Shown here piece by piece: positions 14,895 to 21,632 of a stretch of 21,998 bases of DNA. Below the pieces are notes generated by a model that was given only the letters and a program-made list of their open reading frames with translations, did not search any database and was not told the origin of the DNA. The stretch is from Candidatus Helarchaeota ASGARD archaeon Hel_GB_B (GTDB lineage: Archaea > Asgardarchaeota > Lokiarchaeia > Helarchaeales > HEL-GB-B). How positions within the stretch are numbered: the stretch's first letter is position 1; each line of letters starts with the position of its first letter. A program made the position numbers and the translations under genes. The stretch spans positions 1-21,998 of the forward strand of contig SUPR01000062.1 in the NCBI GenBank assembly GCA_005191425.1. Direction: 5' to 3'.

Positions 14895-16037
14895 TTATTT
14901 TTTATTATAGACCTTAATAATTTTGTATAATGTATCTCTTTGGGCCGGAGTTCTGCCAAGATCTTTAATTAAATGAATAAAGTCGGTTTCAGGCATATAT
15001 TCACCGAAAGAAACTCCTGCGCTTTTTGAGATATTTTCGTCAAATAATGTCCCACCAAAATCATTACAACCTACATTTAATGCATATTGTGCAAACTTAG
15101 GGCCAAGTTTAACCCATGATACTTGAATATTATCTATAATGTTCTGGAAATATAATCTAGATACAGCATATATTTTTAGATCTTCAATACCAGTAGCTCC
15201 CTTGATTGTAAAATTTGACATATGAAGAGGTGTATTCAAATAAATGAATGAAAGCGGCACAAATTCTGTAAAACCGCCCGTATCTTTTTGAATATTTTTT
15301 ATTATTTCAAGGTGTTCCATTCGATGTTTAATAGTATCAATATGTCCATACATCATAGTAGATGTCGTAGGAATTTTAAGTTTATGCGCTGTTTTAATAA
15401 TATCTATCCAAGTTTTGACGTCTATTTTATTGGGGCAAATTATTTTACGAATATCATCATCTAAAATTTCTGCAGCAGTTCCAGGAATAGAATCAAGCCC
15501 AGCATCTTTTAATCTTATTAAAGTTTCTTTAATTGAAAGTCTATTGAGTTTGGCACAATTGTAAATTTCCATTGGAGAAAATCCGTGAATATGTATATCT
15601 GGAACTTGCATTTTTATTGATTTTAAAATAGTTTCATAAATATCTGGACTAAATGAAGGGTTAATTCCACCTTGAATACAAACTTCAGTGCACCCATTCT
15701 TTTTGGCTTCGATAGCACGTTTTACTATTTCATTTATTGATAATTCAAACGGTGTTTCACGACTAAATGCGCAAAATTTACATTTTATTTTACATATATT
15801 AGTAAAATTAATATTCCGATTAATTACAAAAGTTACTTTATCTCCATTTATTTTTTCTCTAATATAATTAGCAATTGAGAATAATATTTCTAATTCTGGG
15901 CCTTTAACTTTTAATAATTCAAGCCCATCATTTTTTGACAATTCTTTATTATCTAAGCATTTATCAAAAATACTCCCAATAATTGGATCAATATTTTTAA
16001 ACTTATTTTCTAAAAACCCGATTAAATTAGAACTCAT
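14895..16037 (-). CDS. cofH: FO synthase subunit CofH (radical SAM)
   Basis: NRNINFTNICKIKCKFCAF (CxxxCxxC), PGTAAEIL, TMMYGH, NIQVSWVK and DFGGTL; directly downstream of cofG. Confidence 0.9.
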   Translation of the reverse strand: MSSNLIGFLENKFKNIDPIIGSIFDKCLDNKELSKNDGLELLKVKGPELEILFSIANYIREKINGDKVTFVINRNINFTNICKIKCKFCAFSRETPFELSINEIVKRAIEAKKNGCTEVCIQGGINPSFSPDIYETILKSIKMQVPDIHIHGFSPMEIYNCAKLNRLSIKETLIRLKDAGLDSIPGTAAEILDDDIRKIICPNKIDVKTWIDIIKTAHKLKIPTTSTMMYGHIDTIKHRMEHLEIIKNIQKDTGGFTEFVPLSFIYLNTPLHMSNFTIKGATGIEDLKIYAVSRLYFQNIIDNIQVSWVKLGPKFAQYALNVGCNDFGGTLFDENISKSAGVSFGEYMPETDFIHLIKDLGRTPAQRDTLYKIIKVYNKK

Positions 16038-17218
16038 TTTACATAACCATTTTCGTCGATTAAATTAAATATTTTATCTTTTAAATTATCTGAAAAATAC
16101 TTTTTAAAGATAAATTCAGGATAAATAGGAAGCCTTTGCTTTAATTTATAGCCTAATTCTTCTGTCCTTGTTTTTAAATTTGAAATTTTTGGCCATGGAA
16201 AGCCAGGATTAATATAATCTGGAGTTAACGGCGAAATACCTCCCCAGTCATCAATACCCGTTAATAAAAATATTTCATAAGTAGGAAATAAATTTGGAGG
16301 AATTTGTATTGATATATCTGTTATTAAGCGAGTAATAATTATAGTCTTAATTATTTTAGTGATAGAAGGTGTTTTATAAACTTTATTTTTATTATTATAT
16401 TTATTTATGCTGTCAGAATATCCTTGTATAATAATTTCTTGGATATTACCATATTTTTCATTTATTTTCTCAATTTCTAATATTGAATCTATTATCTCTT
16501 CATTTTTTTCACCAATACCAAGTAAAATTCCTGTAGTAAATGGTACTTTCAATTTTCCAGCGTTTCTAATTGTCTCTATTCTTAATTTCGGATCTTTTCC
16601 AGGGCTAAATTCATGTGCCTCTCCATGCTCCATTAGACGAGGAGATATATTTTCCAGCATTAACCCTAAACTTGCATTTACTTCTTTTAGTTCTTTTAAC
16701 TCATCATAACTAACAATTCCTGCATTACAATGAGGTAAAAGATTCGAATTTTCCAAAATTAATTTACAAATGTCAAGTAGATACTCAATCGTAGTTTCAT
16801 ACCCGCCTAACTCATTTAAAAACTTCTTGACCTGCGAATATTTCTCCTCAGGCTTCTCCCCCATTGTTAATAAAGCTTCTGTACAATGCCTTGTTTCAGA
16901 CTTTTTTAAAATCGATTTAATTTGCTCTGGAAGGAGAAAAGCAGATACTCCTTCATTATATTCCTTTCTAAAATTGCAGTATCTACAATTATTTCGACAA
17001 TATGGTGTTAATGGTAAAAAAACATTTAATGAATAAGAAATGATATTATTATTAAGTTTTCTTGAAATGGAATTAGAATATAACATAGCACCCATTAATT
17101 CAGGAAAATTCAGACTAAAAATTTGGTATAATTTTTCTTTATTTTTTATTTTAGTTGTTAATCGTTTTCTAAATATTTCTAGTAAGTCAGTTGATATTTT
17201 TGGAAAGTCTTTACACAT
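16034..17218 (-). CDS. cofG: FO synthase subunit CofG (radical SAM)
   Basis: FLPLTPYCRNNCRYC, GLMLE, PFTTGILLGIGE and DDWGGISP; 4-nt ATGA overlap with cofH. Confidence 0.92.
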   Translation of the reverse strand: MCKDFPKISTDLLEIFRKRLTTKIKNKEKLYQIFSLNFPELMGAMLYSNSISRKLNNNIISYSLNVFLPLTPYCRNNCRYCNFRKEYNEGVSAFLLPEQIKSILKKSETRHCTEALLTMGEKPEEKYSQVKKFLNELGGYETTIEYLLDICKLILENSNLLPHCNAGIVSYDELKELKEVNASLGLMLENISPRLMEHGEAHEFSPGKDPKLRIETIRNAGKLKVPFTTGILLGIGEKNEEIIDSILEIEKINEKYGNIQEIIIQGYSDSINKYNNKNKVYKTPSITKIIKTIIITRLITDISIQIPPNLFPTYEIFLLTGIDDWGGISPLTPDYINPGFPWPKISNLKTRTEELGYKLKQRLPIYPEFIFKKYFSDNLKDKIFNLIDENGYVK

Positions 17219-17341
17219 TATTTAATTAAGATTTATAAAAAAATAAAAATTTTATTAATAAAATTTTAAATTATTATAAAATATTAAATGATTTATTATC
17301 ATTTTGTTATAAAATTAAAGATAATAATAGTATGACCTTAA

Positions 17342-18544
17342 ATGACTGACCAAAAACAAATCTATTCATCATTAGCCCTTTTAGGAGAAGATTTGCAGAT
17401 TGCTAAAGATGTATTAATTAAAATTAATGGCAAAAAAATTGTTGATATTGAAACTTCAATTACCAAACAAAGAAAAAAAGATGTCTCTGAAAATTTTTAC
17501 TTTGACAATTGTATTATTTTACCTGGTTTTATCAATGGCCATACTCATATTGGTGATTCTTTTGCAAAAGAATTAGGTTTTAAATTAAAAATAAATGAAA
17601 TCGTTCAATATCCAAAAGGTCTAAAACATTATCTTTTAGAAAAAATTGATGAAAATATTATAATTGATGGAATGATGAATTCTATCAAAGAAATGATATA
17701 TTCTGGAACTACTACTTTTGTTGATTTTAGAGAGGGGGGAATAAATGGTATTAATTTGCTTCAAAATGCAATAAATAATATATTAAAAATTAATCCAAAT
17801 CTTAAGATTAACAGAATTATCCTAGGGCGCCCTAAAAATGGGATTGAAGATATAGATAACTTATTTAAATACTGCGATGGTATTGGACTTAGTTCTACTA
17901 ACAAGTATTCTGATGAAGAATTAATAGAAATTAGTAAAAAATGTAAGAAGCTCAATAAAATAGCATCCGTCCATGTATCTGAAACTAAAGAAGAACGATT
18001 GTATGCAGATAGAGAATTTAACAATTCCGATGTTTATAGAGCAATTTTGTTGCTGGACGCTAACCCAATAGTCCATGCAATTCATATCACAAAAAAAGAT
18101 ATGACACTCATCAAAACTAAAAAAAGAGGAATTGTCGTCTGCCCCCGTGCTAACTCGTATTTTGGAGTGGGCTTCCCACCAATACAAGAATTTATTAAAG
18201 AAAATATCCCAATATGTATTGGAACTGACAATGTAATGGCAAACAGCTTGAATTTATTTAGAGAATTTGAATATATAATTAAATATTTAAGGTGCATCTT
18301 TGGACCAAAAATTATTAACTCAATAGATATCCTTAAAATGGCTACTATTTATCCTGCAAAAATCTTCAATCTAAAAAATAAAGGGAGCTTAGATATTGGT
18401 AAAGAAGCTGATATGATTGTACTAAATTTAAATAAACCACATCTACAACCTTTTAATAAAATTTTGGAGATTTTAACATTAAGAGCATGCCCCAGTGATA
18501 TTAAAACAATATTTTTAGAAGGTAATAAAATTGTACCAGAATAG
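17342..18544 (+). CDS. Amidohydrolase-superfamily metal-dependent deaminase
   Basis: GHTH, HVSE (HxxE), VHAIH and GTDN metal/catalytic motifs. Confidence 0.88.
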   Translation: MTDQKQIYSSLALLGEDLQIAKDVLIKINGKKIVDIETSITKQRKKDVSENFYFDNCIILPGFINGHTHIGDSFAKELGFKLKINEIVQYPKGLKHYLLEKIDENIIIDGMMNSIKEMIYSGTTTFVDFREGGINGINLLQNAINNILKINPNLKINRIILGRPKNGIEDIDNLFKYCDGIGLSSTNKYSDEELIEISKKCKKLNKIASVHVSETKEERLYADREFNNSDVYRAILLLDANPIVHAIHITKKDMTLIKTKKRGIVVCPRANSYFGVGFPPIQEFIKENIPICIGTDNVMANSLNLFREFEYIIKYLRCIFGPKIINSIDILKMATIYPAKIFNLKNKGSLDIGKEADMIVLNLNKPHLQPFNKILEILTLRACPSDIKTIFLEGNKIVPE

Positions 18545-19208
18545 ACCTTATTGTATTTTAAATGCTGCAATGTCTATAGATGGAAAAATAGCATCAATTA
18601 GTGGAAATACTGAACTTTCTAGCAGCGAAGACTGGATACGCGTCCATAAATTACGGTCTGAAGTTGATGGTATCGTTGTAGGGATAAATACAATTATTAA
18701 AGATGACCCAAAATTAAGAATTAAGTATTTTGACCGGAAATTTGGTCGATTACATAGAATAATTGTTGATAGTAATCTTAAAATTCCTCTAGATTCAAAA
18801 GTACTTACATTTGAAACTAATTTGTACCCATCTATAATTGCTACTACTGAAAATGCTCCACAATCTAAAATTAAAAAAATTAAATCAATTGACCCGAATA
18901 ACATTAGAATTATCAAATGCGGAAATAACAAAAGAGTGGACTTAACAATTATGACTAATAAATTAAAAAACTTGGGAATTAATAAAATTTTACTTGAGGG
19001 GGGTGGCACTTTGAATTTTTCAATGTTAAAAAATAAACTCGTTGATGAATTAATTATTGCAATTTCGCCAGTTATTCTTGGAGGAAAAGATGCACCTACT
19101 CTTGTTGATGGAACTGGGTTTGGATCCTTAAATGAATTCATAAAATTTTTTCTGATTAAAAAGCAATTAATTGGAAACAATTTAGTCTTGTGGTACAAAA
19201 TTAAATAA
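18531..19208 (+). CDS. arfC: 2,5-diamino-6-(ribosylamino)-4(3H)-pyrimidinone 5'-phosphate reductase (RibD C-terminal domain only)
   Basis: AAMSIDGKIA, VHKLRSEVDGIVVGINTIIKDDPKL and LLEGGGTLN; no N-terminal deaminase domain. TTG start with AAGGT 7 nt upstream. Confidence 0.88.
   Translation: MYQNRPYCILNAAMSIDGKIASISGNTELSSSEDWIRVHKLRSEVDGIVVGINTIIKDDPKLRIKYFDRKFGRLHRIIVDSNLKIPLDSKVLTFETNLYPSIIATTENAPQSKIKKIKSIDPNNIRIIKCGNNKRVDLTIMTNKLKNLGINKILLEGGGTLNFSMLKNKLVDELIIAISPVILGGKDAPTLVDGTGFGSLNEFIKFFLIKKQLIGNNLVLWYKIK
19094..19208 (+). repeat. Direct repeat copy 1 (arfC 3' end)
   Basis: Aligns without gaps to 20494-20608, 101 of 115 nt identical. Confidence 0.95.
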
Positions 19209-19472
19209 TATTTAAAATCAGTTGAACGATTAATCCTGAATACTGCAATTAAAATAATTCAAGCAAGAAATGGAACTGCAACATCCAATGAATTATATAC
19301 CAACGAAGATCAGGAAGATATTGGCACTACTTATATTCTAATAAAAAGAGATCTGCTAGGTTTTGTATCAAGACACTATAAAAATTTATTTGAAATTTTT
19401 AAAAAGGAATTATATTTTGATAAAGATAACGATAGATGGTATATTCAAAAAGATCATCATAAATCTAAATAA
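19209..19472 (+). pseudogene. Headless 87-codon open frame, probable remnant of a larger protein's C-terminus
   Basis: YLKSVERLILNTAIKIIQARNGTAT...FDKDNDRWYIQK...; no ATG, GTG or TTG in frame. Confidence 0.45.
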
Positions 19473-19627: not shown

Positions 19628-19951
19628 TTATTTTTCAGCTTGGGAGAGTTCTAATGCACTACCCCTAATGCAAAAATGACTCCAACGGAGATTCATTAAC
19701 TTGTAAATCGGGCAATCTTTACACAAACATTCCTTTTTCTCAGTAATTATAGAACTCTTCCCTTCCATACAAAAGCCCAGAGATGTTTCTCCAGTCCCCT
19801 TATATGTGGGACATTTTCCGCAATGTTCTTTACACATAAATATTACTTGTTCTCTGCTCTCTCTTTTTTGTTTCTCGGACATTTTACTATATATCATCTT
19901 CATTTTTTCTTCAAAAGATGCATCTTTAAAATATTCTTCTTCGTCTGGCAT
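19628..19951 (-). CDS. DUF2769-like Cys-rich protein
   Basis: CGKCPTY...GFCMEGKS...CLCKDCPIY...FCIRG pattern. ATG at 19951 (track start is TTG 19966). Confidence 0.75.
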   Translation of the reverse strand: MPDEEEYFKDASFEEKMKMIYSKMSEKQKRESREQVIFMCKEHCGKCPTYKGTGETSLGFCMEGKSSIITEKKECLCKDCPIYKLMNLRWSHFCIRGSALELSQAEK

Positions 19952-20095
19952 AATCAAAATCCTCAAATTCGTTAAAAGATTTCTTTTAAAATCTCAAATT
20001 TCTAATACATTTTTTTTCTTTTTTAAATTATCGATGGTATTTTTTGGTATTGGATTATTAATTTGAAAATAAATAGATCAATCGAAGTTTTTTAA

Positions 20096-20296: not shown

Positions 20297-20493
20297 GCAT
20301 TTTAATAAAATATCAATTCAATTGATTAGATATAGTTGAAAGAATTAATAGAAGTCTATTCTTCTTTAACTTTAATGAAAGAGAAATTAAATTTAGTAAA
20401 AAATATAATTATTAAAATTTAAAATGAAACCATAATGGAAATTAAGTTTGATGTCTCTAATAGAGAAAAAAGGTTATTTTTGGAAAAAAATAT

Positions 20494-20608
20494 ACCTACA
20501 CTTGTTGATGGAGTTGGATTTAAGTCCTTAAATGAATTCATAAAACTTTTTCTAATTAAAAAGAAATAAATTGGAAATAACTTAGTCTTGTGGTATAAAA
20601 TTAAATAA
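20494..20608 (+). pseudogene. Direct repeat copy 2: degenerate arfC 3' end with a nonsense change
   Basis: PTLVDGVGFKSLNEFIKLFLIKKK*IGNNLVLWYKIK*; TTA changed to TAA at 20567. Confidence 0.9.
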
Positions 20609-20909
20609 CATATGAATTAGTCTATTATAATAAAACTAAAATGAATTCTAAAAAAACTTAACCAAATTAATTAAAAATTAAAAAAGATAATGTCTTTTAA
20701 TCACATTATTACGCAAATTAAGATCAATATATATGAGTTATTCAATATAATTATTGTTTTATTGTTATTTTATTAAATACTCAAGGTCAATTCTTGTAAT
20801 TTATTTTAATTTTTATTCAAACTCAGGATCATTTTGCTATTTTTCTCTTTAATTAAAATTTAATGAAACATTAATAATTTATTTTAAAACAATTTTAAAT
20901 AACTTCATC

Positions 20910-21632
20910 ATGAAAGGTGTCAAACCATTACCTGCTACTACTATTATATTATTGAGAAGTATTGGCAATGATACAAAAAATATCGAAGTGTTAATGACTA
21001 AAAGGCAGAATTATCTAAAATTTTTGGGAGGATATTATGTCTTTCCTGGTGGTAAAGTCGAAGAACAAGATTATTCAGATGTAAATTTAAGTAGAGTAAA
21101 AGGTATTAGTCAAAAAGATGCTCGTAAAATATTAAAAATAAAAAATAATAATGATGATAAAATATCTTTAGAATTCAATTACCTTGGATATTGGACAGCT
21201 GGAATCCGTGAATTGTTTGAGGAAATTGGCATTTTGTTGGCTACAAATAAATTTAATGATCCAATACCATTTCAATCTGTTGAAAAATTTAAAGATTATC
21301 GATTTAAAATTATTAATAACGAGATCACTATGTATGAAATGATGGTCAAAGAAGATTTATATTATTCTGCAGAAAAGTTAACCTATTATAACCGGTTTAT
21401 TACCCCTAAATTCTCTCCAAAACGGTTTGATACCCGCTTTTTCATTTGCAAATTTCCTGGAGAACAAATTAAAATTGACCCATACGAAAAAGAAATCTCT
21501 GAATTAATCTGGATAAAACCTAATGACGCTCTCAATAGAATCCAAAAAAAAGACCCAAATTTTAAACTGATTTTTCCTCAAATTGCAAGTCTTAAAGATT
21601 TAGAATATTTTGATTTAAATCTTTTAATTTAA
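20910..21632 (+). CDS. Nudix hydrolase, NUDT19-like (probable acyl-CoA diphosphatase)
   Basis: ATTIILLR, YVFPGGKVE, GIRELFEEIGILL and FITPKFSPKRFDTRFF. Confidence 0.8.
   Translation: MKGVKPLPATTIILLRSIGNDTKNIEVLMTKRQNYLKFLGGYYVFPGGKVEEQDYSDVNLSRVKGISQKDARKILKIKNNNDDKISLEFNYLGYWTAGIRELFEEIGILLATNKFNDPIPFQSVEKFKDYRFKIINNEITMYEMMVKEDLYYSAEKLTYYNRFITPKFSPKRFDTRFFICKFPGEQIKIDPYEKEISELIWIKPNDALNRIQKKDPNFKLIFPQIASLKDLEYFDLNLLI

Follow-up and report, generated by a model that had tools for sequence, protein, structure and literature searches.

A predicted archaeal pyrimidine deaminase of the MJ0699 amidohydrolase family encoded beside arfC and the FO synthase genes of a Helarchaeota genome

The locus described here raises the question of which enzyme deaminates the diaminopyrimidine intermediate at C2 on the archaeal route to riboflavin and F420. 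In Candidatus Helarchaeota archaeon Hel_GB_B (assembly GCA_005191425.1, contig SUPR01000062.1, positions 1 to 21,998; this whole stretch of 21,998 nucleotides is referred to as the window) a gene for a deaminase-type amidohydrolase overlaps arfC and lies back-to-back with cofG and cofH, which encode the FO synthase subunits. Besides the ARPP phosphatase, C2 deamination is a step of archaeal riboflavin/F420 precursor synthesis that has no experimentally assigned enzyme; the phosphatase is likewise without an assigned enzyme in haloarchaea (PMC8305020). The evidence presented below makes it very likely that the window amidohydrolase is the deaminase of this branch, a function that is predicted rather than biochemically proven.

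The idea of such a deaminase is not new. Rodionova et al. (2017, PMC5397151) describe Archaea as apparently lacking RibD deaminase-domain orthologues and credit a candidate archaeal pyrimidine deaminase, 'PyrD', derived from chromosomal clustering and co-occurrence, to Osterman, Overbeek and Rodionov (2010). HVO_2483 and MJ0699 (Q58110) are named as candidates by Pfeiffer and Dyall-Smith (2021, PMC8305020), according to whom experimental confirmation is still needed. The identity of 'PyrD' with the MJ0699 family is based on this naming and on the Foldseek match reported below. The statement of the initial annotation that the enzyme is not firmly assigned in archaea holds for experimental assignment, of which none was found in the literature searched, and needs amending in that the same family (MJ0699/HVO_2483) had been proposed in 2010 and 2017. 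The window protein is a well-supported rediscovery of this family, and the new elements are limited to its FO-only context and to the missing entry enzyme of the pathway.

The window protein is a member of the MJ0699/NF005552 family of the amidohydrolase superfamily, deaminase subgroup (COG0402 type). Its reading frame is free of stop codons and the Pfam scan of the protein detected a single domain, Amidohydro_1 (E 1.6e-46), and neither PF00383 (cytidine-deaminase fold) nor PF02633 (creatininase fold). NF005552 (PRK07213, 'chlorohydrolase') is the sole NCBIfam hidden Markov model (HMM) that the protein passes, with 319.2 bits against a curated cut-off of 294 and residues 9–394 aligned to profile positions 6–379 of 382. 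The models for 5'-methylthioadenosine/S-adenosylhomocysteine (MTA/SAH), 5'-deoxyadenosine, guanine, 8-oxoguanine and aminofutalosine deaminases and for formiminoglutamate deiminase give about 35–135 bits where 320–780 are required. This includes the DadD/MtaD equivalog models NF005557 (100.8 versus 522) and NF012037 (80.1 versus 779) and the guanine deaminase models TIGR02967 (81.8 versus 375.4) and NF006679 (68.6 versus 351). A HMMER search of the full library returned 198 representatives at E ≤ 1e-30, from which 60 diverse members were aligned. The catalytic motifs H67-x-H69, H211-x-x-E214, H245 and D296, which correspond to the strand 1, 5, 6 and 8 residues of the deaminase subgroup, are invariant in this alignment and confirm the HxH, HxxE, H, D signature that had been read from the sequence. 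Residues D72, G122, G294, N297, T335 and R381 are also invariant, and K76, K95, R130, E131 and R269 nearly so. Asgard paralogs of 440–480 residues reach only ~80–120 bits on NF005552; those selected for comparison (~90–115 bits) are termed MtaD/DadD-like from their length and score. In a joint alignment the paralogs retain the catalytic residues but differ at D72, K95, R130/E131, C267 (Asn in the paralogs), R269, N297 and R381, whereas all of these family-specific residues are found in the window protein. The paralogs also branch off as a clade of their own (support 100/100) in the family tree, where support is limited to tip clades and the paralog clade and the backbone is unresolved.

Structural comparison leads to the same family. 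An AlphaFold model computed from the family alignment (pLDDT 96.5, pTM 0.94) retrieves with Foldseek, among Swiss-Prot models, Q58110 ('Uncharacterized protein MJ0699') in first place, with 31% identity and an E value of 6.5e-40, and O27075 ('Putative aminohydrolase MTH_994') in second. NF005552 matches at E ≤ 1e-70 are present in the Methanocaldococcus jannaschii, Haloferax volcanii and Methanosarcina acetivorans control genomes, and MTH_994 is the top NF005552 match among Methanobacteriota. The control-genome matches and the Foldseek ranking together place the window protein in the MJ0699 candidate family. Starting a homologue search from a Methanobacterium member recovered only close Methanobacterium relatives and did not reach M. 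jannaschii. Among solved structures the model matches adenosine-type deaminases, AtzA, the isocytosine deaminase Vcz, TM0936 and guanine deaminases with template modelling (TM) scores of 0.78–0.87 and 16–22% identity. The scores of 0.80–0.87 to PDB 4dyk, 3lnp, 7ww2 and 1p1m fit a (beta/alpha)8 barrel with an N/C-terminal beta-sandwich. No solved structure was found for any member of the MJ0699 family.

The adjacency to arfC, rib and cof genes, which the initial annotation had proposed to examine across archaea, is conserved in Asgard archaea, Nitrososphaerota, Bathyarchaeia and Thermoproteota. The Asgard loci were the 30 best NF005552 matches from 151 sampled genomes, that is the window locus and 29 others. 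In 24 of these 29, arfC lies directly downstream on the same strand, and about a dozen have cofG as the next gene after arfC. A complete Freyarchaeia chromosome displays the order ribH, arfA, amidohydrolase, arfC and creatininase-family ArfB-like gene, with 323 bits for the amidohydrolase, 238 for arfC and 299 for arfA on NF002587 (GTP cyclohydrolase IIa/III), the last slightly below the cut-off of 306. The ribH gene is preceded there by a weaker PF00885 match, presumably the archaeal riboflavin synthase. A scan based on a 14-sequence alignment added 80 named loci from a species-representative genome collection, with arfA immediately upstream of the amidohydrolase in 56 and arfC downstream in 63. 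The order ribH-arfA-X-arfC, where X is the amidohydrolase, occurs in Nitrosopumilaceae, Nitrososphaeraceae, Nitrosocaldaceae, Bathyarchaeia, one Thermoproteota metagenome-assembled genome and the Jord- and Freyarchaeia, while X-arfC-cofG-cofH occurs in Promethearchaeota, Hodarchaeota and Bathyarchaeia; cofG-cofH follow the amidohydrolase directly in three named loci. Since it recurs in several archaeal phyla, this linkage is far beyond chance.

At a number of these loci (L005:3321-4034, which with L036 represents the Freyarchaeia chromosome, and L034-L036, L038, L039, L041, L070 and L082) the gene after arfC belongs to the creatininase family. The type found at L005 reaches only 40 bits against the ArfB model NF033501, whose cut-off is 180, scores higher on MftE and creatininase models, and probably represents a distinct ArfB/BrbF-like formamidase lineage.

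The distribution of the family among the 151 Asgard genomes follows the same partners. A strong member (E < 1e-50) is present in 58 genomes, and in one more the gene is split over two contig ends. All 59 carriers possess a strong ArfC, and only three genomes have ArfC without the family, one being 78% complete and another having a cut-short ArfC match (positions 1-178 of 210). About 84 of the 151 genomes have neither gene. The family or its divergent form is present in all 57 genomes with CofH, and every family carrier has CofH, RibH or both. This co-occurrence with ArfC, CofH and RibH indicates that the gene follows the metabolite common to lumazine synthase and CofH. Where the family and the paralog occur in one genome, both are retained. 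In Methanobacteriota the family is universal and single-copy, with 151 of 151 genomes above the cut-off.

Two cases depart from the general pattern. A divergent branch of the amidohydrolase (L152-L156, in genomes G015, G036, G054, G111 and G148 of Asgard families f15 and f26) scores 137–150 bits on NF005552, has His at the position of P279 and carries Lys, His or Gln at the position of R381. It adjoins ribH in three genomes and an arfC-like gene in one, and lies a few kb from an arfC-like gene in another. Its partner is an ArfC-like reductase that diverges to the same degree (71–107 bits), and the host genomes have RibA; the substrate of the two proteins may have diverged with them. The other case is G138 (same class as Hel_GB_B, 99% complete), in which RibH, an archaeal riboflavin-synthase-like gene and ArfA are present; ArfC, an MJ0699-family gene and CofH were not found in this genome.

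The gene content of the Hel_GB_B assembly (3.54 Mb, 93.7% complete) narrows the role of the amidohydrolase further. Family searches of the assembly found no cytidine-deaminase-fold protein (PF00383), no ArfA (PF05165), no RibA (PF00925), no RibB (PF00926) and no RibH or archaeal riboflavin synthase (PF00885), and the window protein is the sole deaminase-type amidohydrolase in it. The creatininase-family genes of this genome lie on other contigs than the window. An F420 side-chain cluster on the minus strand of contig C128 (11801-15658) comprises a stand-alone nitroreductase resembling the FbiB C-terminus, cofD (TIGR01819, 332 bits) and cofC (TIGR03552, 139 bits), a set that suggests the dehydro-F420-0 (phosphoenolpyruvate) route in an archaeon. 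As RibB, RibH/RibC, ArfA, RibA and a cytidine-deaminase-fold enzyme were not found but cofC and cofD are present, the amidohydrolase-arfC pair seems to serve FO/F420 synthesis only. Retention of the amidohydrolase with arfC and cofG-cofH in a genome where ArfA, RibA, RibB and RibH were not found points to a job in a step common to all routes to the CofH substrate, and the apparent FO/F420-only role of the pair strengthens the assignment as a deaminase. The C2-deaminase role put forward in the initial annotation is accordingly backed computationally, as a predicted activity, by gene linkage, by co-occurrence with ArfC, CofH and RibH, by scores well under the cut-offs of the SAH/MTA, 5'-deoxyadenosine and guanine deaminase models and by the lack of a cytidine-deaminase-fold rival in the family searches; all the computational tests suggested in that annotation gave favourable results.

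Deaminases of this subgroup, which act on guanine, cytosine, isocytosine and adenosine-type substrates, share a chemistry in which a metal-bound hydroxide attacks an amidine carbon, a Glu/His pair relays protons and ammonia leaves. It is highly probable that the window enzyme deaminates the diaminopyrimidine intermediate in either its ribityl or its ribosyl form. The ArfC product, 2,5-diamino-6-ribitylamino-4(3H)-pyrimidinone 5'-phosphate, is its likely substrate, by analogy with the related deaminases. As the ring of this compound is that of guanine with the imidazole opened, the chemistry would match that of guanine and isocytosine deaminases, and C2 of the 2-amino-4-oxopyrimidine ring would be the target. 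In the proposed mechanism a mononuclear-metal (beta/alpha)8-barrel deaminase would exchange the C2 amino group for oxygen by hydrolysis. The hydroxide bound to the metal, itself held by H67, H69, H211 and D296, would attack C2, with E214 and H245 shuttling protons, and 5-amino-6-ribitylamino-uracil 5'-phosphate and ammonia would be released. After dephosphorylation the product would pass to CofH for FO/F420 synthesis and, in other archaea, to lumazine synthase for riboflavin. The conserved K76, K95, R130, R269 and R381 would suit the 5'-phosphate and the ribityl chain. Asp72 of the MJ0699 family stands three residues after the second His, a position that holds a substrate-binding Gln in guanine deaminases (HxHxxQ). 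The amidohydrolase-arfC pair, divergent from cofG-cofH, would be translationally coupled.

Several observations weigh against this assignment. The choice of substrate depends on gene context and chemical analogy, and no assay, knockout or complementation of any family member was found in the literature searched; a 2026 pathway review makes no mention of experimental characterisation. The nearest solved structures are adenosine-type (MTA/SAH/5'-deoxyadenosine) deaminases, and named MTA/SAH and 5'-deoxyadenosine deaminases come after MJ0699 and MTH_994 in the Foldseek list, so that the nearest named neighbours outside the family are of the adenosine type. Many of the linked loci are from closely related Nitrosopumilaceae and are not independent, and in Methanobacteriaceae the gene is unlinked to rib or cof genes. 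The absences in the Hel_GB_B genome are provisional because of the completeness of its assembly. CofG and CofH are radical-SAM (S-adenosylmethionine) enzymes that release 5'-deoxyadenosine, which leaves the cof linkage ambiguous when taken alone.

A rival role, suggested by this last point, is that of an MTA/SAH or 5'-deoxyadenosine deaminase disposing of the by-product left by CofG and CofH. Such a role would account for the cof linkage and would agree with the structural neighbours just mentioned, and the genome encodes no second deaminase of the subgroup. The role is nevertheless very unlikely, since the DadD/MtaD models are missed by a wide interval (NF005557 101 versus 522, NF012037 80 versus 779) and the substrate-pocket positions are unlike those of the MtaD/DadD-like paralogs. 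In Nitrososphaerota and Freyarchaeia, moreover, the gene is flanked by arfA and arfC and has no radical-SAM gene beside it; it tracks ArfC, both being missing from the same ~84 Asgard genomes, and it is retained together with the paralog where both occur. The high structural similarity to guanine and isocytosine deaminases, which catalyse the same type of reaction, would also fit an enzyme for free bases or pterins (guanine, isocytosine, pterin) that stands outside the flavin/deazaflavin branch and whose linkage is incidental. We regard this as extremely improbable, as TIGR02967 gives 82 bits against a cut-off of 375, as membership of operons across phyla and strict co-occurrence with ArfC are unexpected of a salvage enzyme, and as the five conserved Lys/Arg residues would fit an anionic, phosphorylated substrate.

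A different hydrolytic step might be catalysed instead, either that of the formamide hydrolase ArfB, which the enzyme would replace, or part of GTP ring opening without ArfA or RibA. Most Nitrosopumilaceae operons lack a creatininase-type ArfB beside arfA-X-arfC, and in this genome and its sister family, where ArfA and RibA are wanting, at least one early step lacks an enzyme. There is little prospect of this being correct, as the amidohydrolase shares an operon with the creatininase-family ArfB-like gene at the loci named above, is retained in a genome where no ArfA, which supplies the formyl intermediate, was found, has the residues (HxxE, His and Asp) that mark the deaminase subgroup, and belongs to a genome with its own creatininase-family gene elsewhere. 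The order of the two steps could also be that of bacteria, so that the enzyme deaminates the ribosyl form (EC 3.5.4.26-like) before reduction by ArfC, or accepts both forms. The amidohydrolase gene precedes arfC in nearly all operons, and no computed result separates a ribosyl from a ribityl substrate. Gene order is a poor indicator of reaction order, however, and M. jannaschii extracts and MJ0671 are reported to reduce before deamination (Graupner 2002 and Romisch-Margl 2008, both cited by PMC5397151 and PMC8305020), so that the bacterial order is unlikely. Deamination of the ribityl form, preferred on the basis of these published data, therefore stays the favoured assignment. A role as a phosphatase was dropped, as the catalytic set is of the deaminase type.

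The features of the locus are listed in Table 1. The arfC product passes TIGR01508 with 199.2 bits against a cut-off of 186.45 and RibD_C is its sole Pfam domain. The TTG at 18531 is the only canonical start before the conserved N-terminal strand, which sets the overlap with the amidohydrolase gene (stop codon 18542-18544) at 14 nt. The identical overlap is present in independent JGI and ENA gene calls on two metagenome contigs (L143/L144) that encode the identical protein. The overlap with a reductase-only arfC described in the initial annotation is thereby upheld, as is its back-to-back arrangement with cofG-cofH across the divergent spacer. The cofG and cofH genes overlap each other by 4 nt, and both divergent promoters are presumed to lie inside the spacer. 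The base composition of the window is ~25% G+C, and the proteins encoded in it are closest to ones labelled Lokiarchaeota, Helarchaeota and other Asgard archaea.

Table 1. Coordinates of the features at the amidohydrolase-arfC/cofG-cofH locus, in window positions.
Feature	Position	Strand	Evidence
MJ0699-family (NF005552) deaminase-type amidohydrolase, 400 aa	17342..18544	+	HMM, motifs, AlphaFold model, Foldseek, signature residues
arfC, reductase-only 2,5-diamino-6-ribosylamino-4(3H)-pyrimidinone 5'-phosphate reductase	18531..19208	+	TIGR01508, Pfam RibD_C only, TTG start
Divergent AT-rich spacer, 123 nt, between cofG and the amidohydrolase	17219..17341	strandless	sequence read
cofG, FO synthase radical-SAM subunit	16034..17218	-	NF004884 411.5 bits (cut-off 209); TIGR03550 405 bits
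cofH, FO synthase subunit using 5-amino-6-(D-ribitylamino)uracil	14895..16037	-	TIGR03551 493.6 bits (cut-off 374.1); Pfam Radical_SAM and CofH_C

Downstream of the pair, a direct repeat of 132 nt with 85% identity links positions 19085-19216 with 20485-20616, the second copy lying 1400 nt further on. The first copy takes in the 3' end of arfC, stop codon included, and an open reading frame for a DUF2769 protein (19628-19966, minus strand) stands between the two copies; the repeat-flanked interval looks like an insertion scar in the tail of arfC. Beyond it, 1.7 kb 3' of arfC, a Nudix-box protein of 240 residues is encoded at 20910-21632 on the plus strand. The position of this gene is kept on the two metagenome contigs, and nothing ties its product to the removal of phosphate or pyrophosphate in the branch, for which no enzyme is assigned.

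The apparent separation of FO/F420 from riboflavin synthesis is also observed in most of the sister family f2, in which many genomes are 98–100% complete (loci L019, L021, L023, L025-L031, L042, L047, L050, L072 and L164-L166). The amidohydrolase family, ArfC and CofH are each present in 23 of 25 f2 genomes, RibA was found in none of the 25, and ArfA and RibH are confined to two genera (5/25). With ArfA and RibA not found in the Hel_GB_B genome and in most of f2, the first, GTP-opening step has no known enzyme there. A bacterial precedent is provided by BrbF, a creatininase-family formamidase that acts downstream of a still-unknown GTP-opening enzyme (PMC9478397). A gene of the FolE2/MptA-type GTP cyclohydrolase family (PF02649) stands directly upstream of the amidohydrolase in all 14 f2 loci (63–100% identity), mostly in divergent orientation and co-directional in L028 and L072, and it is single-copy in the five f2 genomes checked. 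The lone PF02649 gene of the Hel_GB_B genome is on a different contig from the window, and the M. acetivorans control has PF02649 but neither PF05165 nor PF00925. Pterin genes (Pterin_bind with DUF4346, DHNA and DUF447) occur a few kb past cofH at the f2 loci, so the adjacency of PF02649 may merely reflect a cluster of genes for GTP-derived cofactors. That the amidohydrolase-arfC-cofG-cofH module of this lineage and f2 is a self-standing FO/F420 pathway, uncoupled from riboflavin, lacking a known entry enzyme and supplied with its diaminopyrimidine by the PF02649 cyclohydrolase, is a speculative proposal, more doubtful than probable, and is offered as a lead rather than a finding. If true, it would open a new way into deazaflavin synthesis, in which the committed downstream step would fall to the MJ0699-family deaminase.

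The window provides a natural experiment: an apparent riboflavin non-maker has retained the amidohydrolase gene alongside arfC and the FO synthase genes, which ties this gene to the product common to both pathways. A second gap also comes to light, namely the enzyme that would open GTP. Should the assignment be true, thousands of 'chlorohydrolase/amidohydrolase' annotations would be corrected, and a universal vitamin pathway would offer a clean case of non-orthologous replacement, with an amidohydrolase fold in archaea and a cytidine-deaminase fold in bacteria, plants and fungi.

Compared with MJ0699, MTH_994 and HVO_2483, the window protein shares the HMM family, the signature residues, the length, the predicted fold and the family's linkage to arfC, arfA and ribH, on which the published prediction was built. 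In contrast to MJ0699, to which its identity is 31%, its partners in the window are cofG-cofH rather than rib genes, and riboflavin synthesis and the known GTP cyclohydrolases II/III are apparently lacking from its genome. The proposed reaction is the one catalysed by fungal Rib2, C2 deamination of the diaminopyrimidine toward 5-amino-6-ribitylamino-uracil 5'-phosphate; the bacterial counterpart is the RibD deaminase domain (EC 3.5.4.26). RibD and Rib2 are zinc enzymes of the cytidine-deaminase fold with HxE and PCxxC motifs (PMC8256712), a fold unrelated to the (beta/alpha)8 amidohydrolase barrel with HxH, HxxE, H and D encoded in the window, which would be a non-orthologous replacement of these deaminases. 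Guanine deaminase and the isocytosine deaminase Vcz (PDB 2i9u, 6ohb and 7ww2/8is4) display the same fold and catalytic set as the window protein (TM 0.78–0.85) and both act on the amino group at position 2 of a 2-amino-4-oxopyrimidine, the exact ring of the proposed substrate. Identity to them is only 16–20%, and the MJ0699 family adds its conserved K76, K95, R130, R269 and R381 and the invariant Asp72. DadD (MJ1541) and the MTA/SAH deaminases (TM0936, PDB 4f0r and 4gbd) are the closest enzymes of solved structure and possess the same metal-binding and proton-shuttle residues, but they are ~40–60 residues longer and differ from the MJ0699 family in their other pocket residues and in their phyletic and operon patterns.

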